From a virus (Duplodnaviria > Heunggongvirae > Uroviricota > Caudoviricetes), in the IMG/VR virus record IMGVR_UViG_2693429676_000005: a DNA stretch of 18,864 nucleotides; one strand, written 5' to 3'. This document shows positions 1-18,864 of this stretch, piece by piece. Below the pieces are notes generated by a model, which saw only the letters and a list, made by a program, of their open reading frames with translations, had not been told where the DNA came from and searched no databases. The number at the start of each line of letters is the position of its first letter. The first letter of the stretch is position 1. Both the position numbers and the translations under genes were made by a program.

Positions 1-1
1 G

Positions 2-109: not shown

Positions 110-123
110 ACGCAGGGTGAATT

Positions 124-1091: not shown

Positions 1092-1098
1092 GGACGAT

Positions 1099-1851: not shown

Positions 1852-1864
1852 ACGGAGGTAATAC

Positions 1865-2296: not shown

Positions 2297-2736
2297 ACTT
2301 TGCCCTCAGACTGGCGCGTGAGATGGGGAGACCCGACTGGCGCGCCATGCTTGCCGGGATGACATCCACCGAATATGCCGACTGGCGCCGTTTTTACCGC
2401 ACGCATTATTTTCAGGATACCCAGCTGGATATGCATTTTTCCGGGCTGACGTACGCTGTACTCAGCCTGTTTTTTTGCGATCCGGATATGCATCCCTCTG
2501 ATTTCAGTCTGCTTGTCCCCCGGCATGAGGAAGAGCAGGTGGAGAGGCCGGATGAGGACAAAATGCTGATGCAGAAAGCGGCAGGACTTGCCGGAGGCGT
2601 CCGGTTCGGTGGGGACGGAGGGCGCGATATTTTATCGTCTGCGGATGTGGCGGATGTCATGGTGGATGATGCCGCATTAATGATGGCTTCAGCGGGGATT
2701 CCGGGAGGTGTGAGATATGTCCCAGCCGGTTGGTGA
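2272..2736 (+). CDS. T: tail assembly protein T, made as a G-T fusion by -1 programmed frameshift
   Basis: Frame 1 is open from the slippery site and reads KVFDGELNFALRLAREMGRPDWRAMLAGMTSTEYADW..., matching recalled lambda T. It has no start codon or RBS of its own until M at 2323, and is -1 relative to G. Confidence 0.8.
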   Translation, partial: GKVFDGELNFALRLAREMGRPDWRAMLAGMTSTEYADWRRFYRTHYFQDTQLDMHFSGLTYAVLSLFFCDPDMHPSDFSLLVPRHEEEQVERPDEDKMLMQKAAGLAGGVRFGGDGGRDILSSADVADVMVDDAALMMASAGIPGGVRYVPAGW

Positions 2737-5307
2737 TCTTGTTATTGACCTGAGTCTGGATGCTGTCCGTTTCGATGAGCAGATGAGCCGGGTAAGGCGT
2801 CATTTTTCAGGTCTGGATACCGACGCCAGAAAAACCGCCAGTGCTGTTGAACAGGGCCTGAGCCGCCAGGCGCTGGCTGCACAAAAAGCCGGGATTTCCG
2901 TCGGGCAGTATAAAGCGGCCATGCGAACCCTGCCCGCACAGTTTACGGATATCGCCACGCAGCTTGCCGGTGGTCAGAATCCCTGGCTGATCCTGCTGCA
3001 ACAGGGCGGTCAGGTGAAGGACTCCTTCGGCGGGATGATCCCCATGTTCAGGGGGCTTGCCGATGCGATCACCCTGCCGATGGTCGGGGTCACCTCGCTG
3101 GCGGTGGCGACAGGTGCACTGGTGTACGCCTGGTACCAGGGAGATTCCACGCTTTCAGCGTTTAATAAAACCCTGGTTCTTTCCGGTAATCAGTCCGGAC
3201 TGACTGCCGATCGTATGCTGACTCTCTCAAGAGCCGGGCAGGCAGCAGGGCTGACGTTTAACCAGGCGAGAGAGTCACTGGCAGCCCTGGTGAATGCCGG
3301 TGTGCGTGGTGGTGAACAGTTTGATGCCATCAACCAGAGTGTCGCGCGTTTTGCGTCTGCATCCGGTGTGGAGGTGGATAAAGTCGCTGAAGCCTTCGGG
3401 AAGCTGACCACTGACCCGACGTCGGGACTGATGGCGATGGCGCGCCAGTTCCGTAACGTGACGGCAGAGCAGATTGCGTATGTTGCACAGCTGCAGCGTT
3501 CCGGAGACGAGGCCGGGGCATTGCAGGCGGCGAACGATATCGCCACGAAAGGCTTTGATGAGCAGACCCGTCGCCTGAAAGAAAACATGGGAACACTGGA
3601 GACCTGGGCGGATAAAACAGGGAAGGCATTCAAATCGATGTGGGATGCCATTCTGGATATCGGTCGTCCGGAATCCTCAGCGGATATGCTCGCCAGTGCG
3701 CAGAAGGCATTTGATGAGGCGGATAAAAAATGGCAGTGGTACCAGAGTCGGAGCCAGCGCCGCGGTAAAACCTCCTCTTTCCGGGCCAACCTTCAGGGCG
3801 CATGGGATGACCGGGAAAATGCCCGTCTGGGTCTGGCAGCGGCAACGCTGCAGTCGGATATGGAAAAAGCCGGTGAACTGGCGGCAAGGGACAGGGCTGA
3901 GCGTGAGTCGTCACAGCTGAAGTATACCGGAGAGGCGCAGAAGGCGTATGAGCGCCTGCTGACGCCACTGGAGAAATATACCGCCCGGCAGGAAGAGCTG
4001 AATAAGGCCCTGAAAGACGGGAAAATCCTGCAGGCGGATTACAACACGCTGATGGCGTCGGCAAAAAAGGATTATGAGTCGACGCAGAAAAAGCCGTCCG
4101 GTGTGAAGGTGTCTGCCGGTGAGCGCCAGGAAGACCAGGCGCATGCAGCCCTGCTGGCGCTTGAAACTGAGCTCAGGACGCTGGAGAAGCACAGCGGTGC
4201 GAATGAAAAAATCAGCCAGCAGCGCCGTGATTTATGGAAAGCGGAAAATCAGTATGTGGTCCTGAAAGAGGCCGCCACGAAACGGCAGTTATCTGAGCAG
4301 GAAAAATCCCTGCTGGCCCATGAGAAAGAAACGCTGGAGTACAAACGCCAGCTGGCTGAGCTGGGCGACAAGATTGAACACCAGAAACGGCTGAATGAGC
4401 TGGCACAGCAGGCGGCGCGGTTTGAACAGCAGCAGAGCGCGAAGCAGGCGGCAATCAGCGCAAAAGCCCGCGGACTCACCGACCGTCAGGCGCAGCGGGA
4501 GTCGGAAGAGCAGCGCCTTCGTGAGGTGTACGGTGATAATCCGGCTGCGCTGGCGAAGGCCACATCTGCACTGAAGAACACCTGGTCTGCGGAGGAGCAG
4601 CTTCGTGGAAGCTGGATGGCCGGGATGAAGTCCGGCTGGGGCGAGTGGGCGGAAAGTGCGACGGACAGTTTTTCGCAGGTTAAAAACGCGGCCACGCAGA
4701 CCTTTGACGGTATTGCACAGAATATGGCAGCGATGCTGATCGGCAGCGAACAGAACTGGCGTGGTTTCACCCGTTCTGTGCTGTCCATGCTGACAGAGAT
4801 TTTTCTGAAGCAGGCGATGGTGGGGATAGTCGGGAGTATCGGCAGCGCCATTGGCGGTGCTTTCGGTGGTGGTGCGTCTGCCTCCACGGGGACGGCCATT
4901 CAGGCTGCGGCGGCGAACTTCCATTTCGCGACCGGGGGATTTACGGGGACGGGGGGTAAATATGAACCTGCGGGGATTGTTCATCGCGGGGAGTTTGTCT
5001 TCACGAAGGAGGCGACCAGCCGGATTGGTGTCGGCAATCTGTACCGCCTGATGCGGGGCTATGCGGAAGGTGGTTATGTCGGCGGTGCCGGAAGTCCGGC
5101 GCAGATGCGGCGGGNNNNNNNNNNNNNNNNNNNNNAGGCATTAATTTTAATCAGAACAATCACGTGGTGATTCAGAACGACGGCCCCAACGGGCGGGCAG
5201 GGCCGCAGCTGATGAAAGCGGTGTATGAGATGGCCCGCAAGGGGGCACAGGATGAACTCCGGCTGCAGTTGCGTGATGGCGGTATGTTATCAGGGAGCGG
5301 TGGATGA
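2717..5307 (+). CDS. H: tail tape measure protein H (interrupted by a 21-N scaffold gap at 5115-5135)
   Basis: Long ORF starting MSQPVGDLVIDLSLDAVRF; start overlaps the T stop. After the N run the protein continues in another frame (GINFNQNNHVVIQNDG...LRDGGMLSGSGG) to TGA at 5305-5307, which overlaps the M start. The frame change means the N-run length is not the true gap length. Confidence 0.88.
5115..5135. other. scaffold gap (21 N) inside H
   Basis: Run of n in the sequence; reading frame differs on the two sides. Confidence 0.95.
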
Positions 5308-5633
5308 AAACCTTTCGCTGGAAAGTGAAGCCGGATATGGAGGTGAACTCGCAGCCATCGGTGCGTGAAGTGCGTTTTGGTGACGGGTACTCACAGCGTA
5401 TGGCGGCAGGGCTGAATGCTGACCTGAAAACATACAGGGTGACGCTTTCCGTGACCCGGGAGGAGGCCCGGCATCTGGAAGCGTTCCTGGCAGAGCACGG
5501 TGGCTGGAAGGCATTTTTGTGGAAGCCACCCTATGCATACCGGCAGATAAAGGTGACCTGTGCCGGGTGGTCTGCGCGGGTCGGGATGTTGCGCGTTGAG
5601 TTCAGCGCGGAGTTTAAGCAGGTGGTGAACTGA
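5304..5633 (+). CDS. M: minor tail protein M
   Basis: 109-aa ORF, MKTFRWKVKP...RVEFSAEFKQVVN, matches recalled lambda M. ATG overlaps H stop (ATGA). Confidence 0.93.
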   Translation: MKTFRWKVKPDMEVNSQPSVREVRFGDGYSQRMAAGLNADLKTYRVTLSVTREEARHLEAFLAEHGGWKAFLWKPPYAYRQIKVTCAGWSARVGMLRVEFSAEFKQVVN

Positions 5634-6331
5634 TGCAGGATATTCGCGAAGAAAGTCTGAACGAGTCGGTTAAGTCAGAGCAGTCACCGCGGGTGGTACT
5701 CTGGGAAATCGACCTGACGGTACAGGGTGGTGAGCGGTATTTTTTCTGTAATGAGCTGAATGAAAAAGGGGAGCCGGTCACCTGGCAGGGGCGTAAGTAT
5801 GAGGCATACCCGATTGACGGCAGCGGCTTTGAGATGAACGGCCGGGGCAGCAGTGCCAGACCGTCGCTGACGGTGTCCAATCTGTTCGGTCTGGTCACCG
5901 GGATGGCGGAAGACCTGCAGAGTCTGGTGGGGGCCACGGTGGTCCGCCGCCGGGTGTATGCCCGTTTTCTGGATGCGGTGAATTTCGTTGCGGGCAATCC
6001 GGAGGCGGACCCGGAGCAGGAGCTGAGTGACCGCTGGGTGGTGGAGCAGATGTCGCAGCTGACAGCCATGACGGCCTCGTTTGTGCTGGCTACACCGACC
6101 GAGACGGACGGGGCGCTGTTTCCCGGTCGCATCATGCTGGCGAACACCTGTATGTGGGATTACCGGGGAGATGAATGCGGGTATAACGGTCCTGCGGTGG
6201 CGGATGAGTTCGACAACCCCACCACGGATATCCGTAAGGACAGATGCAGCAAGTGCATGCGCGGGTGTGAACTGCGCAGGAATGTCGGCAATTTTGGCGG
6301 TTTCCTTTCCATTAATAAACTTTCGCAGTAA
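5633..6331 (+). CDS. L: minor tail protein L (tail tip, Fe-S cluster cysteines)
   Basis: 232-aa ORF, MQDIREESLNE...NVGNFGGFLSINKLSQ, matches recalled lambda L, including the C-terminal cysteine cluster (CMWDYRGDECGY...CSKCMRGC). Confidence 0.93.
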   Translation: MQDIREESLNESVKSEQSPRVVLWEIDLTVQGGERYFFCNELNEKGEPVTWQGRKYEAYPIDGSGFEMNGRGSSARPSLTVSNLFGLVTGMAEDLQSLVGATVVRRRVYARFLDAVNFVAGNPEADPEQELSDRWVVEQMSQLTAMTASFVLATPTETDGALFPGRIMLANTCMWDYRGDECGYNGPAVADEFDNPTTDIRKDRCSKCMRGCELRRNVGNFGGFLSINKLSQ

Positions 6332-6341
6332 ATCCCGGTTT

Positions 6342-7085
6342 ATGACACAGACTGAATCAGCGATTCTGGCACATGCCCGGCGGTGTGCGCCTGCGGAGTC
6401 GTGCGGCTTCGTGATAAGCACGCCGGAGGGGGAGCGGTATATCCCTTGTGTGAATATTTCCGCAGAGCCGGAGGCGTATTTTCGTATCGCACCGGAAGAC
6501 TGGCTGCGGGCAGAGATGCAGGGGGAGATTGTGGCACTGGTCCACAGTCATCCCGGTGGGCTGCCCTGGCTGAGCGAGGCTGACCGGCGGTTGCAGATAA
6601 AAAGCGCACTGCCCTGGTGGTTGGTCTGCCGGGGTGACATTCACAAATTCCGCTGTGTGCCACATCTGACAGGACGGCGCTTTGAGCACGGGGTGACGGA
6701 CTGTTACACGCTGTTCCGGGATGCTTATCATCTGGCGGGGACTGAAATGCCGGATTTTCATCGCGAGGATGACTGGTGGCGCAACGGTCAGAACCTTTAC
6801 CTGGACAATATGGCGGTCACCGGCTTTTACCGGGTGCCCCTGTCCTCTGCACAGGCGGGCGATATTCTGCTGTGCTGCTTTGGTGCTTCGGTACCGAACC
6901 ATGCCGCCATTTACTGCGGCAACGGTGAGCTGCTTCACCATCTGCCTGAACAACTGAGTAAACGGGAGAGGTATTCCGAAAAATGGCAACGACGAACGCA
7001 TTCAGTCTGGCGTCACCGCCACTGGCACGCATCTGCCTTCACGGGGATTTACAACGATTTGGCCGCCGCCTCAGCCTGTATGTGA
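6342..7085 (+). CDS. K: tail tip assembly protein K (JAMM/MPN plus NlpC/P60 domains)
   Basis: The ORF-track frame is open from 6081, but the lambda-K-like N-terminus MTQTESAILAHARRCAPAESCGF starts at ATG 6342, just after the L stop. JAMM motif HSHPGGLPWLSEAD (H-x-H-x7-S-x2-D) is visible, and an NlpC/P60-like Cys/His pair (GVTDCYTLF ... NHAAIY). 3' end overlaps I by about 100 nt. Confidence 0.85.
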   Translation: MTQTESAILAHARRCAPAESCGFVISTPEGERYIPCVNISAEPEAYFRIAPEDWLRAEMQGEIVALVHSHPGGLPWLSEADRRLQIKSALPWWLVCRGDIHKFRCVPHLTGRRFEHGVTDCYTLFRDAYHLAGTEMPDFHREDDWWRNGQNLYLDNMAVTGFYRVPLSSAQAGDILLCCFGASVPNHAAIYCGNGELLHHLPEQLSKRERYSEKWQRRTHSVWRHRHWHASAFTGIYNDLAAASACM

Positions 7086-7663
7086 ACACGGCAGCGGAAG
7101 CCATTCGCGCCCTGTCGATGCAGATGCCGGGCTTTCGCCGTCAGATGAACGAAGGCTGGTACCAGATACGTATTGCCGGTTATGACACGGCACCGGAGGC
7201 GGTGTACGCCCGTCTTCACGAACAGCTGGGTGAGGGAACGGTCATCCACATTGTGCCGCGACTGGCCGGGGCCGGAAAGGGTGGACTGCAGATTGTGCTG
7301 GGGGCGGCAGCCATCGTGGGCTCTTTCTTCACTGCCGGGGCATCAATGGCGTTATGGGGTTCAGCCCTGGCAGCCGGTGGTTTTTCTGCCACCACGATGC
7401 TGTTTTCACTTGGAGCCAGCATGATTCTGGGCGGTGTGGCCCAGATGCTGGCCCCGAAGGCAAAAACACCGGATTACCGCGCAACGGATAACGGCAGACA
7501 GAACACGTACTTTTCCTCACTGGATAACATGATTGCCCAGGGGAACCCGATGCCGGTGCCTTACGGGGAAATGCTGGTTGGCTCCCGCCGTATATCCCAG
7601 GACATCAGCACCCGTGATGAAGGCGGGGGCGGAAAGGTCGTGGTTATCGGGCGGCAGGGGTAA
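6983..7663 (+). CDS. I: tail tip assembly protein I
   Basis: 226-aa ORF; ARICLHGDLQRFGRR...YQIRIAGYD...NTYFSSLDNMIAQGN...VVVIGRQG matches recalled lambda I. Confidence 0.9.
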   Translation: MATTNAFSLASPPLARICLHGDLQRFGRRLSLYVNTAAEAIRALSMQMPGFRRQMNEGWYQIRIAGYDTAPEAVYARLHEQLGEGTVIHIVPRLAGAGKGGLQIVLGAAAIVGSFFTAGASMALWGSALAAGGFSATTMLFSLGASMILGGVAQMLAPKAKTPDYRATDNGRQNTYFSSLDNMIAQGNPMPVPYGEMLVGSRRISQDISTRDEGGGGKVVVIGRQG

Positions 7664-7671
7664 AAAGAATA

Positions 7672-7767
7672 AAAAAATCCCGCAGTGATCGCGGACAGGA
7701 ACTGCGGGAGAGTTACGAAGATTAAGTGTAAGGAATTATTCTTATATCACGACAAAAAAATTAACGC
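7672..7767 (-). ncRNA. candidate small RNA (about 95 nt) in the I-J intergenic insert
   Basis: - strand promoter (-35 TTCACA, 16-bp spacer, perfect -10 TATAAT at 7779-7774) followed about 100 nt downstream by the intrinsic terminator at 7679-7708. No ATG-initiated ORF in the interval. Prediction from sequence only. Confidence 0.35.
7679..7708 (-). terminator. intrinsic terminator for leftward transcription (hairpin then U-tract)
   Basis: Stem CCCGCAGT (7679-7686) pairs with ACTGCGGG (7701-7708). On the - strand the hairpin is followed by TTTTTTTATTCTTTTT (complement of 7661-7678). Confidence 0.6.
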
Positions 7768-7773
7768 AGAGAA

Positions 7774-7801
7774 ATTATACGCGCCACAGTCAGTTTGTGA
7801 A
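7774..7801 (-). promoter_or_regulatory. sigma70-type promoter on - strand
   Basis: - strand reads TTCACA (7801-7796), 16 nt, TATAAT (7779-7774). Confidence 0.5.
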
Positions 7802-7874
7802 AATGTGAAGATATTCAGAATTTTTATGCCATTACCGGTTTTAACCAACAGGATTATCGGTGGGCATGAAAGAA

Positions 7875-7902
7875 AACCCCGGTATCTGCTGATACCGGGG
7901 TT
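7875..7902. terminator. GC-rich perfect hairpin with T-rich flanks on both strands (bidirectional terminator-like)
   Basis: AACCCCGGTATC / tgct / GATACCGGGGTT, 12-bp stem. Followed by TCTCTTT on + and TTTTCTTTC on -. Confidence 0.45.
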
Positions 7903-8006
7903 TCTCTTTAGCATGGCAGAAATGTGTTTCATGCTTTTCGGGCGAAGGATATCCGACTTCTGTACGGAATGGCAAGTGGCGGTTAATTTATTCAGGGGAA
8001 GGCTGT

Positions 8007-10635
8007 ATGGGAAAAGGTGGCGGTAAGGCACACACGCCTCGTGAGGCGAAGGATAATCTCAAATCCACGCAGATGATGAGCGTGATTGATGCGATTGGTG
8101 AGGGACTGATAGAAGGTCCGGTGAAGGGACTGCAGAGTATCCTGGTGAACAAAACCCCGCTGACGGACACGGACGGTAATCCCGTGATACACGGTGTGAC
8201 GGCGGTCTGACGCGCCGGGGAGCAGGAGCAGACACCACCGGAAGGCTTTGAGTCCTCCGGTGCTGAAACCGGACTGGGCGTGGAAGTGACGAAGGCAAAA
8301 CCGGTGACGCGCACCATTACGTCCGCGAACATTGACCGCCTGCGGGTTACCTTCGGGGTGCAGTCACTGGTGCAGACCACGTCAAAGGGTGACCGAAACC
8401 CGACATCCGTCCGCCTGCTGATTCAGTTACAGCGTAACGGTAACTGGGTGACAGAAAAGGATGTCACCATTAACGGCAAGACCACCTCGCAGTTTCTGGC
8501 GTCGGTGATTCTGGATAATCTGCCTCCCCGTCCTTTTAACATCCGGATGGTCCGGGAGACAGCGGACAGCACCACGGACCAGCTGCAGAATAAGACGCTG
8601 TGGTCGTCATACACCGAAATCATCGATGTGAAACAGTGCTACCCGAACACGGCCATTGTGGGGCTGCAGGTGGATGCGGAGCAGTTCGGCGGCCAGCAGA
8701 TGACGGTGAACTACCATATCCGCGGTCGCATCATCCAGGTGCCGTCAAACTATGACCCGGAAAAACGCACGTACAGTGGTATCTGGGACGGTAGCCTGAA
8801 ACCGGCATACAGCAACAATCCGGCCTGGTGTCTGTGGGACATGCTGACTCACCCGCGCTACGGCATGGGAAAACGTCTGGGGGCGGCGGATGTGGACAAG
8901 TGGGCGCTGTATGCCATCGGGCAGTACTGCGACCAGACGGTCCCGGATAGTTTCGGGGAGACCGAGCCGCGGATGACCTTCAATGCGTACCTGGCACAAC
9001 AGCGTAAGGCATGGGACGTGCTCAGTGATTTCTGCTCGGCGATGCGCTGTATGCCGGTATGGAACGGCCAGACGCTGACGTTTGTTCAGGACCGCCCGTC
9101 GGATGTGGTGTGGCCGTACACCAACAGCGATGTGGTGGTGGATGATAACGGCGTGGGTTTCCGCTACAGCTTCAGTGCCCTGAAGGACCGGCACACGGCG
9201 GTGGAGGTGAATTATACCGACCCGCAGAACGGCTGGCAGACCTCCACGGAACTGGTGGAAGACCCGGAAGCCATACTGCGCTACGGACGCAACCTGCTGA
9301 AGATGGACGCGTTCGGCTGTACCAGCCGCGGTCAGGCCCACCGTGCCGGACTGTGGGTGATAAAGACCGAACTGCTGGAAACGCAGACGGTGGATTTCAC
9401 GCTCGGGTCTCAGGGGCTGCGGCACACACCCGGTGACATCATTGAAATCTGTGATAACGACTATGCCGGGACCCTGACCGGCGGACGTGTCCTGTCCATT
9501 GATGCTGCCACCCGCACTCTGACGCTGGACCGTGAAGTGACACTTCCGGAGACCGGTGCCGCCACGGTGAACCTGATTAACGGCAGCGGTAAGCCGGTGA
9601 GTGTGGACATCACCGAACACCCCGCGCCGGACCGGATACAGGTCAGTACCCTGCCTGATGGTGTGGAGACATACGGGGTGTGGGGACTCTCCCTGCCGTC
9701 ACTGCGCCGTCTCCTGTTCCGCTGTGTCTCCGTCCGGGAAAACACGGACGGCACCTTTGCCATCACGGCGGTGCAGCACGTACTGGAAAAAGAAGCCATC
9801 GTGGATAACGGTGCCCGCTTTGAGCCGCAGTCAGGTTCCCTGAACAGCGTCATCCCACCGGCAGTGCAGCACCTGACGGCCAGTATCTGGCGCAGGCGAA
9901 ATGGGACACGCCGCGGGTGGTGAAGGGTGTGCGCTTCAGTCTGCGCCTGACCAGTGGTAAGGGAACGGATGCCAGACTGGTGACCACCGCCATCACCGCA
10001 GACACGGAGCACCGTTTCAGCGGCCTGCCGCTCGGGGAATACACCCTGACGGTGCGGGCGATAAACAGCTATGGCCAGCAGGGTGAACCTGCCACCACCA
10101 CCTTCCGGATTGCCGCACCGGCAGCACCGTCGCGGATTGAGCTGACGCCGGGCTATTTTCAGATAACCGCCACGCCGCATCTTGCGGTTTATGATCCGAC
10201 GGTACAGTTTGAGTTCTGGTTCTCGGAAAAGCGGATTGCGGATATCAGGCAGGTTGAAACCACAGCACGCTATCTTGGCACGGCGCTGTACTGGATAGCC
10301 GCCAGTATCAATATCAAACCGGGCCATGATTATTACTTTTATATCCGCAGTGTGAACACCGTTGGCAAATCGGCATTCGTGGAGGCTGTTGGTCAGCCGA
10401 GTGATGATGCATCCGGTTATCTGGATTTTTTCAAAGGCGAGATAGGGAAAACCCATCTGGCTCAGGAGCTGTGGACGCAGATTGATAACGGTCAGCTTGC
10501 GCCTGACCTGGCTGAAATCAGGACGTCCATTACGGATGTCAGCAATGAAATCACGCAGACCGTCAATAAGAAACTGGAAGACCAGAGTGCGGCAATTCAG
10601 CAGATACAGAAGGTTCAGGTTGATACAAATAATAA
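8007..10635 (+). pseudogene. J: tail tip / host-specificity protein J, 5' and central part, disrupted by in-frame TGA (8208-8210) and a frameshift near 9875
   Basis: MGKGGGKAHTPREAKDNLKSTQ... matches recalled lambda J N-terminus. The same frame resumes after the TGA (RAGEQEQTPPEGFESSG...TRTITSANIDRL) and runs to 9923. Homology then continues in frame 2 from about 9875 ([20 protein letters not shown], cf. lambda GEYQVLARWDTPKVVKGV). Central FN3-like region present ([16 protein letters not shown]). Confidence 0.85.
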
Positions 10636-11078
10636 NCCCGACGGTACAGTTTGAGTTCTGGTTCTCGGAAAAGCGGATTGCGGATATCAGGCAGGTTGAA
10701 ACCAGCGCCCGCTATCTTGGCACGGCGCTGTACTGGATAGCCGCCAGTATCAATATCAAACCGGGCCATGATTATTATTTTTACGTTCGCAGTGTGAACA
10801 CCGTTGGCAAATCGGCATTCGTGGAGGCTGTCGGTCGGGCGAGCGATGATGCGGAAGGTTACTTGGATTTTTTCAAAGGAGAGATAGGGAAAACACATCT
10901 GGCTCAGGAGCTGTGGACGCAGATTGATAACGGTCAGCTTGCGCCTGACCTGGCTGAAATCAGGACGTCCATTACGGATGTCAGCAATGAAATCACGCAG
11001 ACTGTCAATAAGAAACTGAAAGACCAGAGTGCGGCAATCCAGCAGATACAGAAGGTTCAGGTTGATACAAATAATAAT
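10196..11078. repeat. two tandem, about 96%-identical copies (10196-10635 and 10638-11078) of a J internal segment, separated by a single N
   Basis: Both copies start CCGACGGTACAGTTTGAGTTCTGGTTCTCGGAAAAGCGGATTGCGGATATCAGGCAGGTTGAAACC and end GTTGATACAAATAATAA, with scattered substitutions. Probably an assembly join of two alleles. Confidence 0.8.
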
Positions 11079-11900
11079 CTGAACAGCATGTGGGCTGTGA
11101 AGCTGCAACAGATGAAGGACGGACGCCTTTATATTGCGGGTATCGGTGCCGGTATTGAGAATACGCCAGCAGGAATGCAGAGTCAGGTGCTGCTGGCGGC
11201 AGACAGGATTGCGATGATTAATCCTGCGAATGGCAACACAAAGCCGATGTTTGTTGGTCAGGGCGATCAGATATTCATGAACGACGTGTTCCTGAAACGC
11301 CTGACGGCTCCCACCATTACCAGCGGCGGTAATCCTCCGGCATTTTCCCTGACACCGGACGGAAAACTGACCGCTAAAAATGCAGATATCAGTGGCAGTG
11401 TGAATGCGAACGCCGGGACGCTCAACAATGTCACAATTAATGAGAACTGTCAGATTAAGGGGAAACTGTCAGCCAACCAGATTGAAGGCGATATAGTCAA
11501 AACAGTGGGTAAGGCTTTTCCGCGGGACTCCCGGGCACCGGAGCGGTGGCCATCAGGGACCATTACCGTCAGGATTTATGACGATCAGCCTTTTGACAGG
11601 CAAATTGTTATTCCGGCGGTGGCATTCAGCGGCGCTAAACATGAGCGGGAGAATAACGATATTTATTCGTCATGCCGCCTGATAGTACGGAAAAACGGTG
11701 CTGAAATTTATAACCGTACCGCGCTGGATAATACGCTGATTTACAGTGGTGTTATTGATATGCCAGCTGGTCGCGGCCACATGACGCTGGAGTTTTCGGT
11801 GTCAGCATGGCTGGTGAATAACTGGTATCCCACAGCAAGTATCAGCGATTTGCTGGTTGTGGTGATGAAGAAAGCCACCGCAGGCATCAGTATCAGCTGA
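10638..11900 (+). CDS. J: J 3' portion, allele A (receptor-binding C-terminus ending ...[10 protein letters not shown])
   Basis: Frame 0 from 10638 reads [21 protein letters not shown]...[54 protein letters not shown]..., which matches the recalled lambda J C-terminal region. Stop at 11898-11900. Confidence 0.7.
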
Positions 11901-11919
11901 ATTTTATAACCCATATACG

Positions 11920-11946
11920 GGCGCCAGAAATGGCGCCTTTTTTATT
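11920..11946 (+). terminator. intrinsic terminator after J allele A
   Basis: GGCGCC / agaaat / GGCGCC followed by TTTTTTTATT. Confidence 0.65.
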
Positions 11947-11967
11947 GCAGAAAAGCGAGAGGTAATT

Positions 11968-12014
11968 ATGCGTAAAGTTTGTGCAGCCATTTTGTCCGCA
12001 GCCATCTGTCTGTC
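11968..12014 (+). other. lom: lom 5' fragment (allele A), cut off by NNNN at 12015-12018
   Basis: ATGCGTAAAGTTTGTGCAGCCATTTTGTCCGCAGCCATCTGTCTGTC encodes MRKVCAAILSAAICL, the same signal-peptide start as the complete lom at 12995, with 3 nucleotide differences. Confidence 0.6.
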
Positions 12015-12018
12015 NNNN
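12015..12018. other. scaffold join (4 N) between lom 5' fragment and J allele B
   Basis: NNNN joins two unrelated sequence contexts (lom start, then J internal sequence). Confidence 0.9.
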
Positions 12019-12924
12019 AAACTGGAAGACCAGAGTGCGGCAATTCAGCAGATACAGAAGGTTCAGGTTGATACAAATAATAACCTGAACAGCATGTGGG
12101 CTGTGAAGCTGCAGCAGATGCAGGACGGACGCCTTTATATCGCGGGTATTGGTGCCGGTATTGAGAACACCCCTGACGGCATGCAGAGTCAGGTGCTGCT
12201 GGCGGCGGACAGGATTGCGATGGTTAATCCTGCGAATGGCAACACAAAACCGATGTTTGTTGGTCAGGGCGATCAGATATTCATGAACGACGTGTTCCTG
12301 AAACGCCTGACGGCCCCCACCATTACCAGCGGTGGAAATCCATCGGCATTTTCCCTGACTCCGGACGGAAAGCTGACCGCTAAAAATGCGGATATCAGTG
12401 GCAGTGTGAATGCGAACGCCGGGACGCTCAACAATGTCACGGTAAATGAAAACTGTACGATTAAGGGCATGCTGGAGGCGACTCAGGTCAGAGGTGACTT
12501 CGTTAAAGCTGTATCCAAATCATTTCCGAAACAGGCTGGTACGTGGGGTAACACGGAAACACCAAACGGGACGGTTACAGTCACCATAAGCGATGATCAT
12601 AACTTTGACCGCCAGATTATTATTCCGCCCATTATTTTTAACGGTATAGCGTATGACGATCCGGGGAGCGGAAATAACCCAGGAGGCACGCGATACACGG
12701 GTTATGGTTTTGAAGTTCGCAAAAACGGCGTATTAATCGCATCCAGAGAAACTAAAGGTGCCATTCCCGGTAGTTACAGTGCAGTTATTGATATGCCTAG
12801 TGGTGGTGGTAGCGTCACTCTGGAGTTTAAGATTTTCCAGAAAGGCAATCAGGGGGCAGGCAATATCACCGACTGTACGGTGATTGTGACCAAAAAAGCG
12901 GCTTCCGGCATCAGTATTCGTTGA
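12019..12924 (+). CDS. J: J 3' portion, allele B (distinct receptor-binding C-terminus ending ...KKAASGISIR); likely the true continuation of J from 10635
   Basis: 12019-12083 is identical to 10571-10635, so the two pieces overlap as unitigs. Downstream reads [24 protein letters not shown]...[53 protein letters not shown]..., then a C-terminal about 140 aa unrelated to allele A. Stop at 12922-12924. Confidence 0.75.
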   Translation, partial: KLEDQSAAIQQIQKVQVDTNNNLNSMWAVKLQQMQDGRLYIAGIGAGIENTPDGMQSQVLLAADRIAMVNPANGNTKPMFVGQGDQIFMNDVFLKRLTAPTITSGGNPSAFSLTPDGKLTAKNADISGSVNANAGTLNNVTVNENCTIKGMLEATQVRGDFVKAVSKSFPKQAGTWGNTETPNGTVTVTISDDHNFDRQIIIPPIIFNGIAYDDPGSGNNPGGTRYTGYGFEVRKNGVLIASRETKGAIPGSYSAVIDMPSGGGSVTLEFKIFQKGNQGAGNITDCTVIVTKKAASGISIR

Positions 12925-12946
12925 AATATTTATAACCCCAATAAAT

Positions 12947-12973
12947 GGCGTCAGGAATGACGCCTTTTTTATT
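12947..12973 (+). terminator. intrinsic terminator after J allele B
   Basis: GGCGTCA / ggaa / TGACGCC followed by TTTTTTATT. Confidence 0.65.
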
Positions 12974-12994
12974 GCAGAAAAGCGAGAGGTAATT

Positions 12995-13594
12995 ATGCGT
13001 AAAGTTTGTGCAGCCATTTTGTCCGCAGCCATTTGCCTGGCCGTATCCGGTGCGCCTGCATGGGCGTCTGAACATCAGTCCACACTGAGCGCGGGGTATC
13101 TTCATGCCCGTACGAACGCTCCCGGCAGCGATAATCTGAACGGGATTAACGTGAAATACCGTTATGAGTTTACGGACGCGCTGGGGCTGATTACGTCCTT
13201 CAGTTATGCCAATGCTGAGGATGAGCAAAAAACGCACTACAGCGATACCCGCTGGCATGAAGATTCCGTGCGTAACCGCTGGTTCAGCGTGATGGCGGGG
13301 CCGTCTGTACGCGTGAATGAATGGTTCAGCGCGTATGCGATGGTGGGTGTGGCTTACAGCCGTGTGTCGACTTTCTCCGGGGATTATCTCCGCGTAACTG
13401 ACAACAAGGGGAAAACGCACGATGTGCTGACCGGAAGTGATGACGGTCGCCACAGCAACACGTCTCTGGCGTGGGGGGCTGGCGTGCAGTTTAACCCGAC
13501 CGAATCCGTGACCATTGACCTTGCTTATGAAGGTTCCGGTAGTGGTGACTGGCGAACGGATGCATTTATTGTTGGTATCGGATACCGTATCTGA
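12995..13594 (+). CDS. lom: outer membrane protein Lom (Ail/Lom/PagC family beta-barrel; prophage moron)
   Basis: 199-aa ORF with signal peptide MRKVCAAILSAAICLAVSGAPAWA. Motifs GINVKYRYEFTD, SVMAGPSVRVNEWFSAYAMVGVAYSR and C-terminal AYEGSGSGDWRTDAFIVGIGYRI match recalled lambda Lom. Position after J as in lambda. Confidence 0.9.
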   Translation: MRKVCAAILSAAICLAVSGAPAWASEHQSTLSAGYLHARTNAPGSDNLNGINVKYRYEFTDALGLITSFSYANAEDEQKTHYSDTRWHEDSVRNRWFSVMAGPSVRVNEWFSAYAMVGVAYSRVSTFSGDYLRVTDNKGKTHDVLTGSDDGRHSNTSLAWGAGVQFNPTESVTIDLAYEGSGSGDWRTDAFIVGIGYRI

Positions 13595-13698
13595 CAACAG
13601 ACGCCGATTTATCTTCTGTAAATATTGTTATGATACGCAGGTTCATCCACCTTATGGGGTGAACTGCGTTTGAGGAAACGTAAAGTTACACTGTCCTG

Positions 13699-13735
13699 AA
13701 GCCCGTGGCGTCACTGCTGCGGGCTTTTTTTATTG
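13699..13735 (+). terminator. putative intrinsic terminator after lom
   Basis: AAGCCCG ... CGGGCTT stem with 14-nt loop, followed by TTTTTTTATT. Confidence 0.45.
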
Positions 13736-13745
13736 GTGGAAAAGT

Positions 13746-16502
13746 ATGACAGTAAAAATTTCTGGCGTGCTTAAAGATGGCACAGGAAAACCAGTACAGA
13801 ACTGCACCATTGTGCTGAAGGCCAGACGAACCAGCAGCACGATGGTGGTGAACACGGTGGCCTCTGAAAATCCGGATGAAGCCGGACGTTACAGCATGGA
13901 TGTTGAGCATGGTCAGTACAGCGTCACCCTGCTGGTTGAAGGTTTTCCGCCTTCACATGCCGGGACCATTACCGTCTATGAAGGTTCCAGACCAGGTACG
14001 CTGAATGATTTTCTCGGTGCCATGACGGAGGATGATGTCCGACCGGAGGCACTGCGCCGCTTTGAGCAGATGGTGGAAGAGGTGTCACGTAACGCCTCCG
14101 CGGTTGCACAGAATACGGCAGCCGCGAAAAAATCAGCCAGCGAGGCGGCAACTCATGCAACCGATGCTGCAGCCTCAGCACGTGCCGCCAGCACGTCAGC
14201 CGGACAGGCCGCGTCGTCGGCTCAGTCAGCGTCTTCCAGCGCAGGAACGGCATCGACAAAGGCCCGTGAAGCAGCAAAAAGTGCTGCTGCAGAGTCATCA
14301 AAAAGCGCGGCAGCTACCAGCGCCAGTGCCGCGAAAACGTCAGAAACGAATGCCGCAGCATCACAAAAATCGGCAGCCACTTCTGCATCCACAGCGACCA
14401 CGAAGGCGTCAGAAGCTGCCACCTCGGCACGGGGTGCGGCGGCCTCAAAAGAGGCAGCGAAATCTTCAGAAACGAATGCATCATCGAGTGCCAGTAGTGC
14501 AGCTTCCTCGGCAACGGCGGCAGGAAATTCCGCGAAGGCGGCAAAAACGTCCGAGACGAACGCTAAGTCTTCTGAAACAGCAGCGGGACAGAGCGCCTCA
14601 GCTGCGGCAGGTTCAAAAACAGCGGCTGCATTATCTGCCAGTGCCGCGTCAACAAGTGCCGGGCAGGCCTCAGCCAGTGCCACCGCCGCCGGAAAATCGG
14701 CAGAAAGCGCCGCATCATCCGCTTCAACAGCCACAACGAAGGCTGGCAAAGCCACTGAGCAAGCCACTGCAGCAGCGAGGTCTGCTTCTGCAGCAAAAAC
14801 CTCTGAAACAAATGCAAAGACTTCAGCAGACAATGCTGCTTCCTCTAAGGCAGCAGCCGCATCGTCAGCCAGTTCAGCGGCGTCATCGGCATCATCTGCG
14901 TCTGCTTCAAAAGATGAGGCGACCAGACAAGCGTCAGCAGCGAAAGGTAGTGCCACGACAGCAACAACGAAAGCATCAGAGGCGGCAGGCAGTGCGACGG
15001 CTGCATCTCAGAGCAAAGTTGCTGCTGAATCCGCGGCAACGCGCGCCGAGACAGCAGCAAAACGGGCAGAGGATATTGCATCCGCCGTGGCGCTTGAGGA
15101 TGCGAGCACGACGAAAAAGGGGATAGTACAGCTCAGCAGTGCGACCAACAGCACTTCCGAGTCACTGGCGGCAACGCCAAAAGCGGTTAAGGCGGTAATG
15201 GGTGAAACGAACAAGAAAGCGCCCTTAAATAGTCCTGCACTGACCGGAACGCCAACAACACCAACTGCGCGACAGGGAACGAATAATACCCAAATCGCAA
15301 GCACGGCTTTCGTTATGGCTGCGATTGCCGCCCTTGTAGATTCGTCACCTGATGCACTGAACACGCTGAACGAGCTGGCTGCGGCGCTGGGCAACGACCC
15401 GAATTTTGCGACCACCATGACTAACGCGCTTGCGGGTAAGCAACCGAAAGATGCCACCCTGACGGCGCTGGCCGGACTTACTACTGCGGCAGGCAAGTTT
15501 CCGTATTTTACGGGGAATGATGTCGCCAGCCTGGCAACCCTGACAAAAGTCGGGCGGGATATTCTTGCGAAATCGACCGTTGCTGCCGTTATCGAATACC
15601 TCGGTTTACAGGAAACGGTAAACAAGGCTGGTAACGCCGTTCAGCGTTCCGGCGATAAAATGACCGGAGAACTGAAAATTGGCACGGTGAATGCGCTGCG
15701 AATTTTCAATGATACCTTCGGTCTAATTTTCCGTCGTTCAGAAGATTTTCTTCATTTCATTCCGACGGCTGAAGGACAAGGCGAAAACGGTAATATCGGC
15801 CCATTAAGGCCATTCGCTATAAATCTGAGAACAGGTGCTATATCTGTCAGCCACGGGGCCAAAATTAAAGGAGGTCTAGCTATTGGAGCTACTGATAACG
15901 CACTGGGTGAAAACTCCATTGTTCTGGGAGATAACGACACCGGATTTAGGCAAGATGGAGATGGTATTATTAGCTTCTATTCAAATGGTTCGCGCATCGG
16001 ACATATTGATGAGTTAGGATTACATCTTTATAAAGATATTGAATCTAATGGCAGCAATTTTAGATTAAAAAGTAATTACCGCCACCACATTACATTCGCC
16101 AACGAAGACGGAAGAATTCGTATGTTTTTGTGGAAAGATAACGGTGGTGATGGTGTTCATATTAATAACGGTTCAGATGGTGGTGGTGATTTCATTTTTA
16201 AAACAGATGGGGGATTTGCGCTGGGAAGTGGTGCGCAAGTTGCGTCTAGTGGCGATATTTATGGTTCAGTGTGGGAAAACAACTGGTTAAGCACATGGCT
16301 GCATAATCATGTCGTTCGGGATATTCGTCTTGGCAGCATTGAATATAAAAACGTATGGCGCGACTACGGCTTTGGCGATGCGTCAGGTTATGTTTTAACA
16401 GCCGCAATTAACAGCAATGCGGATGATATTGTCGACACTGTTGCCAGAAGGCCAATTCAGAAATTGATTGGGGGAATATGGTACAACGTGGGGAGTGTTT
16501 AA
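13746..16502 (+). CDS. stf: side tail fibre protein Stf (constant N-terminal part plus invertible variable C-terminal part)
   Basis: 918-aa ORF. N-terminus [28 protein letters not shown]...[33 protein letters not shown] is near-identical to recalled lambda Stf, followed by a long Ala/Ser/Thr-rich repetitive shaft (KTSETNA repeats). The region after the crossover site at 15589-15614 is the exchangeable tip. Confidence 0.9.
15589..15614. other. left crossover site for invertase (gix/pix/hix-like, 26 bp), inside stf
   Basis: TTATCGAATACC TC GGTTTACAGGAA. The reverse complement of the right site (18505-18530) is TTATCTAAAACC TC GGTTTACGAGAA, giving 21/26 identity in inverted orientation, two 12-bp half-sites around a 2-bp core. 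Matches the recalled gix pattern. Confidence 0.7.
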
Positions 16503-16503
16503 G

Positions 16504-17031
16504 ATGATGCACCTGAAAAATATTAAGGCCGGGAATCCGAAAACACCGGAACAATACCAGCTAACTAAAAAAGCGGGCGTGGTATGGCTCTTTTGCGAAG
16601 ATGGCAAAAACTGGTATGAGGAACAAAAGAATTTTCAGCCAGACACCATAAAAATTGCTTACGATGAGAACAACATCATCGTTGCTGTCAGTAAAGACGT
16701 TTCAACTATTAATCCTGAAGGGCTAAGCATAGTTGAAGTTCCTGATATTACGGCAAATCGTCACGCAGACAATAACGGAAAATGGATGTTTCTGGATGGT
16801 AAAGTAGTAAAGAGGGAATATACAGAACAGGAACTGCAACAACAGGCCGAATCACAAAAGGCCGCATTGCTTTCCGAAGCTGAATCAGTCATCCAGCCGC
16901 TGGAACGCGCTGTCAGGCTGAATATGGCAACAGACGAGGAACGCACACGACTGGAAGCATGGGAACGCTACAGTGTTCTGGTCAGCCGTGTGGATACGGC
17001 AAATCCTGAATGGCCACAAAAGCCTGAATAA
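16504..17031 (+). CDS. tfa: tail fibre assembly chaperone Tfa (partner of + orientation fibre tip)
   Basis: Starts 1 nt after the stf stop: [41 protein letters not shown]... This is a typical Tfa N-terminus and is paralogous to the inverted copy at 17060-17593. Confidence 0.88.
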
Positions 17032-17036
17032 AAATT

Positions 17037-17056
17037 AAGGCCCGATAGCGGGCCTT
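17037..17056. terminator. hairpin between convergent tfa genes (terminator, U-tract on - strand)
   Basis: AAGGCCCG / atag / CGGGCCTT. On the - strand it is followed by AATTTTTATT. Confidence 0.6.
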
Positions 17057-17059
17057 CTC

Positions 17060-17593
17060 TCATTCTGGTTGTTCGGGAAACGTTACTGGCAGGCTGGAGG
17101 TGTCTGTGGATTCAACCTTCTGCGCATAGAGCATCCACTCGGTTAATTTTTGTTTATTCTCATCGGAAATGATGCCCAGCTGTAGCTGAGAGTCCCACAG
17201 CTGGGTTTTATCCCTGACGAGCTGCAGCAGGCTCTGCTTTTCATTTTCCGCTTGTTGCCTTTGCTCTTCCTCGGTATAAGTTCGCTTTATCACCGCACCA
17301 TCTTTGAACATCCAGTTGCCCGAAATATCAGCCCGGCGATTTGCTGTAATATCAGGCAACTCAACGACACTTAAACCTTCTGGATTAATTGCTGATACAT
17401 CCTTGTCTATAGCAATAATTATTCCCTCAACTGTGTAAGCCAGTTTTATTGTATCCTCCTGAAAGTTTTTTAATTCCTCATGCCAATTTTTTCCATCTTC
17501 GGACCATAACCAGATAACATCAAAATTCTTTGTTAGCTGGTATTGTTCAACGGTTTTTGGATTACCTGCGACAATGTTTTTTAAATGCTGCAT
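17060..17593 (-). CDS. tfa: tail fibre assembly chaperone Tfa' (alternative, inside invertible segment)
   Basis: 177-aa [43 protein letters not shown]..., with a conserved N-terminal about 95 aa shared with the + strand Tfa and a different C-terminus. Confidence 0.88.
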
Positions 17594-17595
17594 GA

Positions 17596-18522
17596 TTATA
17601 CCTGCGATACGTTATACCATGTTCCGTTAATTAACTTTTGTATTGGTCTGAATACTGCCGGATCATCACCATCGACTTCACCGATAATACCAAGCCCCGT
17701 GATTACATGGCCTGATTTTTCATACATCACGCCTTTCTTCATGGTCTAAACAACTCGTGTGCCAAGTCTGACATCTCTCACATAGCGGGAATCAAAGTTA
17801 CCGTAATCCGAGGGATTAACACGTCCCGTAATATTTATGGTTTTATTACTTTGAATGCTTCCGGAGACAAAGCGCATAACATGGACGTTATTAGCATAAA
17901 CATCCAGATTACCATCGCCTTTTTGTTTAAAGCCCGTGTCATTATCACCCAATACAATCGAATTACCGCCAAGAGCACTGGATGTTCCGATACCCAGTGC
18001 ACCATTCAGTTGACCACCAGATAACGGCAGTGCACCAACATCTCCTGCTGAAGGTTTTCTGGTGGTGTAAAATTCGGACCAGTCGGCTTCAAAACCATAA
18101 CCATCACGGGCTGAACGATAAAAAATACCGCCATTTTTATAATTAATCCGAAACTGAGCTGCAGGACAACTTCCTTCTCCCATATAAAAATGAATAATTA
18201 ACGTTGATGCACCACTAATAGTTGCGTTATAGGCTCCGCTACTCCAGTTCCATCCAACTGCTTTATCATTCGCAACGGTGCTTCCTGTTTTCCCTAAGGC
18301 AAACGCACCAACATGACTTGCTTTTAATGTGATATCGGAGGAACCATCAAAAGCCACATTGCTTATTTTCCTGGCAGTTTTTAATTTTGCAGCTGTAGAA
18401 GCATTGCCGGATAGTTCACCAGAAAGGCCACCGCTGAATGTTTGTCGATTAGTCCAGGTATTCGCTGTACTGAGTAACGGTATTTTCTCCCCGCTTGTGC
18501 CGAGTTCTCGTAAACCGAGGTT
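17596..18522 (-). pseudogene. stf: alternative tail fibre variable C-terminus (Sv'), no own start codon, interrupted by in-frame TAG at 17746-17748
   Basis: - strand frame is open from just inside the right crossover site (NLGLRELGTSGEKIPLLSTANTWTNRQTF...) with no ATG. Contains [21 protein letters not shown], paralogous to Stf [21 protein letters not shown]. After the TAG the same frame continues for 48 codons ending [18 protein letters not shown], paralogous to the Stf C-terminus [18 protein letters not shown]. Confidence 0.75.
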
Positions 18523-18530
18523 TTAGATAA
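18505..18530. other. right crossover site for invertase (gix/pix-like, 26 bp)
   Basis: TTCTCGTAAACC GA GGTTTTAGATAA, close to the recalled Mu gix sequence TTCCTGTAAACCGAGGTTTTGGATAA. Lies directly upstream of the invertase gene, as in Mu, P1 and e14. Confidence 0.75.
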
Positions 18531-18584
18531 TGGCGGTTTCTGGCCTGCATGGCATGATTTGTGCTTTTGGACGGGAGATTCAGC

Positions 18585-18864
18585 GTGCTGATTGGCTATG
18601 TAAGGGTATCAACAAATGACCAGAATACAGACCTGCAACGAAACGCTCTTGTTTGTGCAGGATATGAACAAATATTTGAAGATAAATTAAGCGGAACAAG
18701 GACAGGCCGACCTGGATTAAAACGTGCTTTAAAGCGCCTTCAAAAAGGTGACGCACTGGTTGTCTGAAAACTGGACTGACTGGGTCACTGTATGCGGCAT
18801 CTTGTCGTGCTGGTGGTGGAAGCCTAGAAAAAGTATCGGGTGTTGCTGAACCGTGTTGATACAT
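18585..18864 (+). pseudogene. pin: Pin/Gin/Hin-family serine DNA invertase, 5' part; in-frame stops after codon 60; 3' end beyond window
   Basis: From GTG 18585: (M)LIGYVRVSTNDQNTDLQRNALVCAGYEQIFEDKLSGTRTGRPGLKRALKRLQKGDALVV, near-identical to recalled Pin/Gin N-termini including the catalytic Ser in VRVSTNDQ. TGA then replaces the conserved W of VVWKLDRLGR (18765-18767), with a second TGA (18777-18779) and a TAG (18825-18827) in the same frame. Confidence 0.8.

Follow-up and report, generated by a model that had tools for sequence, protein, structure and literature searches.

Inherited lesions and a probable scaffolding artefact in the tail-gene remnant of a lambda-like Shigella sonnei prophage

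A prophage whose tail structural genes are open while its tail tip gene, an alternative fibre end and an invertase carry stops raises the question of whether adsorption functions have been lost selectively or whether the consensus sequence is at fault. Both options were offered in the initial annotation of the stretch analysed here (the window; 18,864 nucleotides, IMG/VR record IMGVR_UViG_2693429676_000005), which placed all disruptions in the host-range module and envisaged either a defective prophage in which adsorption is dispensable or counter-selected, or assembly errors where paralogous prophage sequences collapse. The window is the complete scaffold CXCX01000086.1 (18,864 bp) from a short-read draft of Shigella sonnei (assembly GCA_001258435.1), with an exact match over positions 4995-18864, and it covers the tail-gene part of a cryptic, lambda-like prophage remnant adjoining the trp operon. 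S. sonnei is a young clone in whose prophages pseudogenes and IS-mediated deletions accumulate. Our reading, which we hold with high confidence on the basis of sequence comparisons, is that the remnant is long dead and its lesions are inherited, while the duplicated 3' end of J is a scaffolding artefact.

The same locus is found in S. sonnei 53G (HE616528.1; lineage II, PMC5447701), which carries the exact Stf and J fragments of the window. There are 0 differences from 53G over window positions 1-10170 and 10637-12014, and departures are limited to the scaffold joins, stubs derived from a paralog and two synonymous differences in stf. Damage is evident from the left end of the window onward:

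1 to 32: outermost bases of an IS21-family insertion sequence, a repeat within which the scaffold begins
33 to 123, plus strand: last part of the head-tail joining gene FII and the spacer before Z, the sole leftover of the head module

Positions 1-60 map to the 53G locus at 9878, immediately beyond istA (8638-9810, minus strand), and homology with an intact E. coli phage begins only ~92 bp before Z. In E. coli relatives, Nu1-A-W-B-C-D-E-FI-FII precede a Z identical to that of the window; in 53G and CP061367.1, IS21- and IS3-family elements stand where the head genes Nu1 to FII should be, and no endolysin is found among the gene calls of the remnant in these two genomes. The elements have taken the place of the whole head module and of most of the lysis cassette. 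While an inducible lambdoid prophage has complete head, tail and lysis modules, this remnant has no head, no called endolysin and a broken J. The claim that all disruptions cluster in the host-range module fails on this ground, with the head module gone and an IS end at the very start of the window.

To the right of this deletion, the tail genes are open:

124 to 699, plus strand: Z, uninterrupted ORF
696 to 1091, plus strand: U, uninterrupted ORF
1099 to 1851, plus strand: V, uninterrupted ORF
1865 to 2296, plus strand: G, uninterrupted ORF
up to 2736, plus strand: T
2717 to about 5290, plus strand: H, with an N gap
5115 to 5135: scaffold gap in H, 21 N where 4 real bases (CGGA) belong
5304 to 5633, plus strand: M
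5633 to 6331, plus strand: L, uninterrupted ORF
6342 to 7085, plus strand: K, uninterrupted ORF
7082 to 7663, plus strand: I, uninterrupted ORF

Complete S. sonnei genomes have the same gene calls with Pfam families over the Z-I block (124-7663), and in an alignment of this block with E. coli cM8a the N gap is the only indel. H is intact in reality because the 21 N stand for only 4 bases; it encodes 857 aa in complete S. sonnei genomes. The initial annotation was thus right that H is interrupted by the scaffold gap alone, and ORF list and Pfam hits agree with its view that Z, U, V, G/T, M, L, K and I, as well as lom, stf, tfa and tfa', are uninterrupted. The cluster shares with phage lambda the order Z-U-V-G/T-H-M-L-K-I-J-lom-stf-tfa, the Pfam families and the G/GT slip site GGGAAAG (2272-2278, in G). 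It differs from lambda in having a 343-bp spacer between I and J, a broken J, no head genes and an invertible cassette at the fibre end.

The first gene after the spacer carries two lesions:

8007 to 10170, plus strand: 5' two thirds of J (tail tip, central fibre), local allele J1, with W68* and a 22-bp deletion

J starts at 8007, and its codon 68 is TGA (8208-8210) as compared to TGG in E. coli relatives; further on, the frame is shifted by the loss of 22 bp after 9880, between two CTGACGG repeats, so that the reported combination of TGA and frameshift stands. The deletion probably arose by slippage. Pfam domains follow each other in J-type order across the fragments (FNIII-A_GpJ, Phage-tail_3, Ig_J, Ig_J_second, Phage_Tail_Tip, Ig_GpJ_C). 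However, instead of the single uninterrupted frame of ~1150 codons of a lambda-type J, there are the TGA and the deletion, and the J of the window is a pseudogene of the lambda-type tail tip family. Read-through of the UGA at codon 68 (UGA-C context) is irrelevant because the 22-bp deletion follows.

The remaining stops lie at the fibre end, in and beside an invertible segment:

13746 to 16502, plus strand: stf, side tail fibre, 918 aa, intact and in expressed orientation (Pfam phage_tail_N, gp37_trimer)
15585 to 15614: left crossover site, within stf at the ...IEYLGL... junction, inverted repeat of 30 nt
16504 to 17031, plus strand: tfa, tail fibre assembly chaperone, 175 aa, intact (Pfam Caudo_TAP)
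17060 to 17593, minus strand: tfa', alternative chaperone, 177 aa, intact (Pfam Caudo_TAP)
17596 to 18537, minus strand: Sv', silent alternative fibre C-terminus, with CAG>TAG at 17746-17748 and an in-frame 3-bp deletion at 18059/18060
18505 to 18534: right crossover site, TTCTCGTAAACCGAGGTTTTAGATAA, 83% complementary to the left site
18585 to 18864, plus strand: what is left of a Pin/Gin-type serine invertase (60 aa match the Pfam Resolvase N-terminal domain)

The Stf protein is present exactly in 53G and is indexed in 272 blocks of the collection, and tfa and tfa' are called in the same way in complete genomes. The right crossover site, we presume, resembles the gix site of Mu. As in Mu G/Gin, P1 C/Cin and e14 P/Pin, two opposed fibre C-termini, each with its chaperone (stf C-terminus and tfa versus tfa' and Sv'), lie with inverted crossover sites at the flanks and a resolvase-family gene nearby. 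Unlike in these switches, the invertase is truncated, the silent cassette has a stop and orientation is uniform, with five of five complete S. sonnei genomes collinear with the window; both orientations of the segment were seen only among E. coli relatives. Where a functional switch has a complete serine invertase (Resolvase and HTH_7, ~190 aa), the window copy reaches 60 codons before the first of the three stops reported previously (TGA at 18765-18767, TGA at 18777-18779, TAG at 18825-18827). Both TGA codons are common to two complete E. coli genomes and the TAG to one of them, and the invertase in relatives is likewise truncated, after ~93 codons. The cis invertase would already have been a truncated pseudogene in E. 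coli ancestors, with the Sv' TAG gained later.

The TAG of Sv', also correctly noted at the outset, replaces a CAG of intact relatives. It is present in eight of the ten S. sonnei loci that cover the site, including 53G, and the resulting 203-aa fragment is found on at least 1000 contigs. By contrast, CAG is kept in CP179997.1, which has the J lesions, and in strain Sh5827 (lineage I; PMC5447701). Decay was, judging from this distribution, apparently stepwise, with the Sv' TAG younger than the lesions in J; one assembly has a further 17-bp deletion in J.

Comparison with the same prophage in related isolates, as the initial annotation had proposed, bears directly on whether these lesions exist. 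First, all 14 S. sonnei loci covering those sites, six of them complete chromosomes, have the TGA and the 22-bp deletion in J. Second, the deletion junction is present in five IMG/VR assemblies, and the exact J fragments lie on 551 and 248 contigs. Third, the lesions in J and Sv' are absent from the 5,426 complete E. coli genomes searched. The junction had no match in the genome contig collection scanned, which, at a guess, may lack an S. sonnei representative of its own. That every stop and frameshift stems from errors of consensus or assembly where paralogous prophages collapsed, with the genes intact in the real genome, is scarcely credible: paralog-derived sequence and N joins do occur in the J of this scaffold, and short-read drafts of the clone are chimeric in this region; however, the same TGA and deletion, and mostly the same TAG, are found in independently finished chromosomes, and the lesions sit in stretches identical to 53G. 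The stops in J and Sv', the 22-bp deletion and the invertase stops are real, inherited mutations: five or six complete S. sonnei genomes and hundreds of contigs share them, and the invertase stops are found in complete E. coli genomes as well.

What collapse of paralogs can explain is not these lesions but the duplicated 3' end of J and the lom 5' end at two N joins, both of which lie in the J region and were overlooked in the initial annotation:

10171 to 10635, plus strand: contig tail switching to the paralogous J allele J2, foreign to the locus
10636: scaffold join, single N; the sequence restarts 441 bases further back in J
10637 to 12014, plus strand: true local continuation, with the J1 3' end (stop 11898-11900), the spacer between J and lom, and the opening 47 bases of lom
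12015 to 12018: scaffold join, NNNN; 12019-12083 repeats 10571-10635 exactly
12019 to 13040, plus strand: paralogous J 3' end (J2; stop 12922-12924), J2-type spacer and lom 5' end
12995 to 13594, plus strand: lom (Ail/Lom outer-membrane protein), intact; the first 46 bases are paralog-type, giving S16A relative to 53G

Across the joins, 10196-10635 matches 10638-11077 at 95% and 11013-11461 matches 12019-12467 at 93%, and Pfam finds two complete C-terminal receptor-binding domains in tandem (Ig_J_second, Phage_Tail_Tip and Ig_GpJ_C in 10637-12014; Phage_Tail_Tip and Ig_GpJ_C in 12019-13040). Variable sites up to 10128 have the J1 base and every one from 10171 on has the J2 base, while all complete genomes have J1 over 10171-10635. 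The segment 10637-12014 is 100% identical to 53G, where it is contiguous with the 5' part of J, and 8007-10194 plus 10637-11900 add up to 3452 bp, i.e., 3474 minus 22, the length of J in 53G. J is single and collinear in five complete genomes, and in a sixth (CP061367.1) it is split in the same way as far as the locus extends; other drafts of the clone have different or reciprocal chimeras here. The J2 arm is 93% identical to the J1 arm and 99.7% identical to the J2 copy in locus L009, and many other prophages have J2 and lom2 as their native combination. J2 was found in 75 IMG/VR loci, those outside S. sonnei having at most 98.2% identity to the copy in the window; this search for the paralog located no home locus of J2 in a complete S. 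sonnei genome.

Judged against finished genomes from other strains of the clone, 12019-13040 is in all probability the other arm of an assembly bubble, and the second frame change of J at 10636 and the tandem receptor-binding end appear to be join artefacts that are not in the genome. The window has the marks of repeat-induced scaffolding artefacts in short-read assemblies, in which bubble arms are laid end to end with N spacers: arbitrary N lengths (21 N for 4 bases, 1 N, 4 N), contig ends at allele-specific sites, and redundant sequence on both sides of the joins that is missing from the finished genomes. Two contig ends would have been extended into the J/lom allele of another prophage, with the contig that bears the true local J 3' end set between them by means of N spacers. 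Because the allele switch falls within only 42 identical bases while the contig ends overlap by 65, it is not fully accounted for by a simple de Bruijn mis-join, and we infer that a gap filler extended the contig ends into J2. Masking by the database is ruled out as the origin of the N runs because 21 N replace 4 bases and because, past each of the other two runs, the sequence resumes at a point further upstream. A contig derived wholly from a second prophage from 12019 on is likewise ruled out, since the sequence from 13041 matches the 53G locus apart from the two synonymous differences.

The shortness of the switch for a k-mer mis-join could also point to real gene conversion between two prophages in this isolate or its sublineage, giving a J1-5'/J2-3' hybrid and the S16A lom, with 10637-12014 coming from the other copy. 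The exact hybrid Lom protein does recur, on 11 contigs. However, all 11 are short-read drafts, in scaffolds with the same style of short N spacer; the hybrids differ among themselves in fine patches and include the reciprocal combination; pure J1-lom1 is found in five of five complete genomes covering the stretch; and the scaffolder set the J1 contig exactly between the two ends. Conversion is an unlikely source of this arrangement.

With the artefact set apart from the lesions, the preferred reading of a dead remnant can be weighed against selection that removed adsorption or host-range functions and kept the tail structural genes, whether receptor-binding proteins are costly or the tail genes are used. 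Thirteen neighbouring genes are open, and the three lineage-specific lesions all fall in J and Sv', for which p is about 0.02 when this narrow set is chosen post hoc. At the level of the region, with all three in genes of 8007-18864, p is 0.17, and clustering in the right half of the window is not beyond chance. J is the largest target, with 21% of coding bases, and its lesions have a single shared origin. In lambda, J is needed to start tail assembly. Its loss is therefore not specific to adsorption, and for the same reason the other tail genes cannot act without it. Moreover, the host-range module is not uniformly hit, because the expressed fibre genes stf and tfa and also lom are intact; the younger Sv' lesion is in an unexpressed cassette, the invertase lesions are in a remnant that was no longer functional in E. 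coli relatives either, and the head genes have been lost. As compared to E. coli alleles, J has 34-41 synonymous versus 10-13 non-synonymous codon differences, which argues for recent inactivation rather than long relaxed drift, although such per-gene counts reflect phage mosaicism and are uninformative on selection within S. sonnei. Selection against adsorption is thus very unlikely. Of the explanation offered at the outset, the defective prophage stands, and to a greater extent than envisaged, with head genes and most lysis genes missing; dispensable or counter-selected adsorption finds no support.

Intactness of the 13 genes could in principle reflect selection, in a clone too uniform for substitution ratios. 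A version in which Z-I, lom and stf-tfa are kept across the S. sonnei clone as a store of tail and fibre modules for recombination with incoming lambdoid phages, or for a Lom or Stf that benefits the host, with the patchy J1/J2 and lom1/lom2 hybrids as ongoing gene conversion between resident prophages, seems to us highly improbable. We infer instead that the intact tail genes are relics which decay has not yet reached, the clone being young, and not evidence of selection against adsorption; the open reading frames still left would be those not yet hit by mutation. Altogether, these findings are consistent with a model whereby the prophage died by several independent routes, i.e., loss of the head genes and most lysis genes to IS elements, W68* and the 22-bp deletion in J, truncation of the invertase and the TAG in Sv', with mutations that probably became fixed through descent in a clonal pathogen of recent origin, in which pseudogenes and IS copies build up.

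The remnant is ordinary, because its stops and 22-bp deletion are inherited and its extra J 3' copies a product of scaffolding. It is already annotated in S. sonnei: the cryptic remnants of 53G and Ss046 have the same locus, sequence and biology, flanked by IS elements, with J annotated as fragments of 67, 547 and 513 aa and Sv' as fragments of 48 and 203 aa. The case carries a caution for draft genomes rich in IS elements and prophages, in which tandem extra receptor-binding domains and frame changes by short N runs may be scaffolding products, while stop codons in that gene may nonetheless be true mutations; with finished genomes from the clone for comparison, the two can be told apart without reads. 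For the biology of S. sonnei, the locus adds nothing beyond the known picture of pseudogene build-up and IS-mediated deletion in its prophages.

This defective prophage carries real lesions, to which the window adds a paralog-driven scaffold artefact. The window is one entire scaffold of an S. sonnei short-read draft; a look-up of the Lom protein led to contig CXCX01000086.1 (GCA_001258435.1; 18,864 bp), which is identical to the window over bases 4995-18864. The Stf protein has exact matches in S. sonnei 53G (HE616528.1, lineage II; PMC5447701) and other S. sonnei chromosomes, and complete E. coli genomes match the window at only 96-98%. Public S. sonnei genomes already carry annotation for this locus. 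ORFs and Pfam matches together describe a tail cluster of lambda type:

Z, U, V, G/T, H, M, L, K, I, J, lom, stf, tfa, in this gene order
3' of tfa: tfa' (alternative chaperone) and the alternative fibre end (Sv'), both on the opposite strand; then a resolvase-family remnant
5115-5135, 10636 and 12015-12018: the three N runs in the 18,864 bases

All genes listed as intact in the initial annotation are open. H is interrupted by the scaffold gap only, its 21 N standing for four bases (CGGA), and the gene is whole, with 857 aa in finished genomes. GGGAAAG occurs once in the window (2272-2278, zero frame G GGA AAG), directly before the G stop codon, and corresponds to the programmed -1 frameshift site of lambda G/GT; this match indicates that the G/T arrangement is preserved. 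Between I and J lies a 343-bp spacer (7664-8006) of a kind absent from phage lambda, of lower G+C content (0.47 for 7501-8000). Its sequence is 100% identical in E. coli cM8a, and it contains a GTG ORF of 113 aa (7685-8026) for which we found no Pfam match.

Several lines of evidence bear on whether the interruptions are genuine. First, each was found as described: in J (start 8007), codon 68 is TGA instead of the TGG of relatives, and 22 bases are absent after 9880, between two CTGACGG repeats, a loss that changes the reading frame; in Sv', a minus-strand TAG (17746-17748) replaces the CAG of intact E. coli versions that are 98.9% identical, besides an in-frame 3-bp deletion; and the invertase frame, which reads ...GDALVV*KLD*LGHCMRHLVVLVVEA*KK..., has two TGA and one TAG at 18765, 18777 and 18825. 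Second, as comparison with related isolates confirms, the J and Sv' lesions recur across S. sonnei. Comparison across all loci examined detected the TGA and the 22-base deletion in every S. sonnei locus covering them, six of which are complete chromosomes. The deletion junction is present in five IMG/VR assemblies, which differ from the window at 0-8 positions over up to 10 kb (one anomalous stretch excepted) and nowhere at 8210 or 17748. Exact 67-aa and 547-aa J fragments occur on 551 and 248 contigs, respectively, and the 203-aa Sv' fragment, which the Ss046 and 53G annotations include, occurs on at least 1000. Over 1-10170, the window and 53G show 0 differences. Third, the J deletion, J TGA and Sv' TAG are each missing from all 5,426 complete E. 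coli genomes. The complete E. coli genomes WS3294A and cM8a share both invertase TGA codons, and cM8a shares the TAG as well; in these genomes the gene is, in addition, truncated after ~93 codons, and this pseudogene is thus older than S. sonnei. On these sequence comparisons, the listed lesions are real.

The lesions differ in age. CP179997.1 carries both J lesions and retains CAG in Sv'; the CAG is also retained in lineage I strain Sh5827. One related S. sonnei assembly, IMGVR_UViG_2529293265_000014 (locus L007), has a further 17-bp J deletion, equivalent to window 9660-9676, which suggests ongoing pseudogene decay or is possibly an assembly error. Together, the retained CAG and this extra deletion point to stepwise decay.

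The proposal that all disruptions cluster in the host-range module (8007-18864) does not hold in any meaningful sense. With targets proportional to gene length, the probability that all three lineage-specific lesions fall in genes of this interval is p = 0.17, and J makes up 21% of coding bases; p = 0.02 was obtained only with the J plus Sv' set, chosen post hoc. Moreover, stf (the expressed fibre), tfa (its chaperone), tfa' and lom are intact inside the module, and IS insertion and head gene loss lie upstream.

Consensus or assembly error had been offered as the alternative. It fails for the stops and the deletion, which recur in complete genomes, but it accounts for a J duplication that the initial annotation missed and for the frame change at 10636. 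By self-comparison, 10196-10635 is repeated at 10638-11077 (95%) and 11013-11461 at 12019-12467 (93%), and 10571-10635 equals 12019-12083 exactly; Pfam hits show the J tip and receptor-binding domains in two complete sets (10638-11897 and 12019-12921). At its variable sites, the contig that ends at 10635 has bases of the local allele (J1) up to 10128 and of a paralogous allele (J2) from 10171 on. The contig from 12019 follows J2 through the stop into the first lom bases and is local again from 13041. The J1 arm is the contig of 1,378 bases flanked by the two N joins, and both of its ends fall at allele-specific sites. In five complete S. sonnei genomes J is present once, its 5' part and the J1 arm (99.9-100% identical to the window) being collinear and continuing into lom, and a sixth, CP061367.1, has the same split J up to its locus end. 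Reconstructed J (8007-10194 plus 10637-11900) measures 3452 bp, i.e., 3474 - 22, exactly the length of 53G J. In another draft of the clone the J2 arm comes ahead of the J1 arm, which follows an N; in a further draft a divergent J 5' part runs into a 3' end of J1 type; and several have patchy mixtures of J1/J2 or of lom1/lom2. We conclude that the J 3' duplication and the frame change are, as far as these alignments indicate, scaffolding products, in which contig ends would have been extended with reads of the J paralog. A simple k-mer mis-join does not fully explain the 42-base identical stretch at the J1-to-J2 switch, given an overlap of 65 bases. Some "complete" S. sonnei records (L015, CP044191.1, 4807-5387; L016, CP029794.1) show additional splits (gene I divided in two) or blocks of 100 N in H and IS1 copies; even a finished record may contain errors here.

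The fibre region is organised like the Mu G, P1 C and e14 P systems, with thirty-base inverted sites (15585-15614 and 18505-18534) and two fibre ends and two chaperones facing each other. Both orientations occur among E. coli relatives, and all five complete S. sonnei genomes have that of the window. The cis invertase is dead, which together with the uniform orientation makes Sv' a silent cassette; its TAG is expected to be neutral. Two S. sonnei drafts (L011, 16316-16903; L013, 20886-21473) run from the fibre cassette straight into a P2-like prophage with its own invertible cassette and an intact 195-aa invertase (Resolvase plus HTH_7). This shows cross-scaffolding between fibre cassettes, and the P2-like invertase is a possible trans-acting candidate for the window's segment. 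In its Ala/Ser-rich repeat region, stf shows in-frame length variation (Stf has 918 aa in the window and 941 aa in E. coli cM8a); a 244-aa antisense ORF in this region (14222-14956, minus strand), called as a gene in some annotations, is most likely spurious. Two synonymous third-position differences from 53G, at 14486 (where every related assembly compared has the 53G base) and 15095, could reflect either strain SNPs or bleed-through from a fibre paralog.

The scaffold starts inside the end of an IS21-family element (1 to ~32), and only the last part of FII remains of the head module. In complete S. sonnei genomes, IS21- and IS3-family elements occupy the place of the whole head module, next to a truncated lysis cassette that precedes them (L092, the 53G locus, 6871-9810): in 53G and CP061367.1, these elements stand upstream of Z directly after a holin and two small ORFs, and no terminase, portal, protease, decoration, capsid, FI or FII gene was found there. 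At the other end of the prophage, IS1 copies adjoin trpA. An E. coli draft that encodes an identical Z protein retains the full head module, and its J (1157 aa) is intact.

The initial observation holds in part, and so does its interpretation: the real lesions and absent head genes bear out the reading as a defective prophage, and we found no evidence that adsorption functions are selected against. Because lambda tail assembly starts with J, the codon 68 stop abolishes tails as a whole and not adsorption alone. Because without head genes no particle forms, virion production cannot account for the open tail genes. Differences between J and the closest E. coli alleles are mostly synonymous (34-41 synonymous against 10-13 non-synonymous codons), placing its inactivation as recent relative to allele divergence. 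This agrees with a young clone, in which most genes of the dead element would not yet have been hit.
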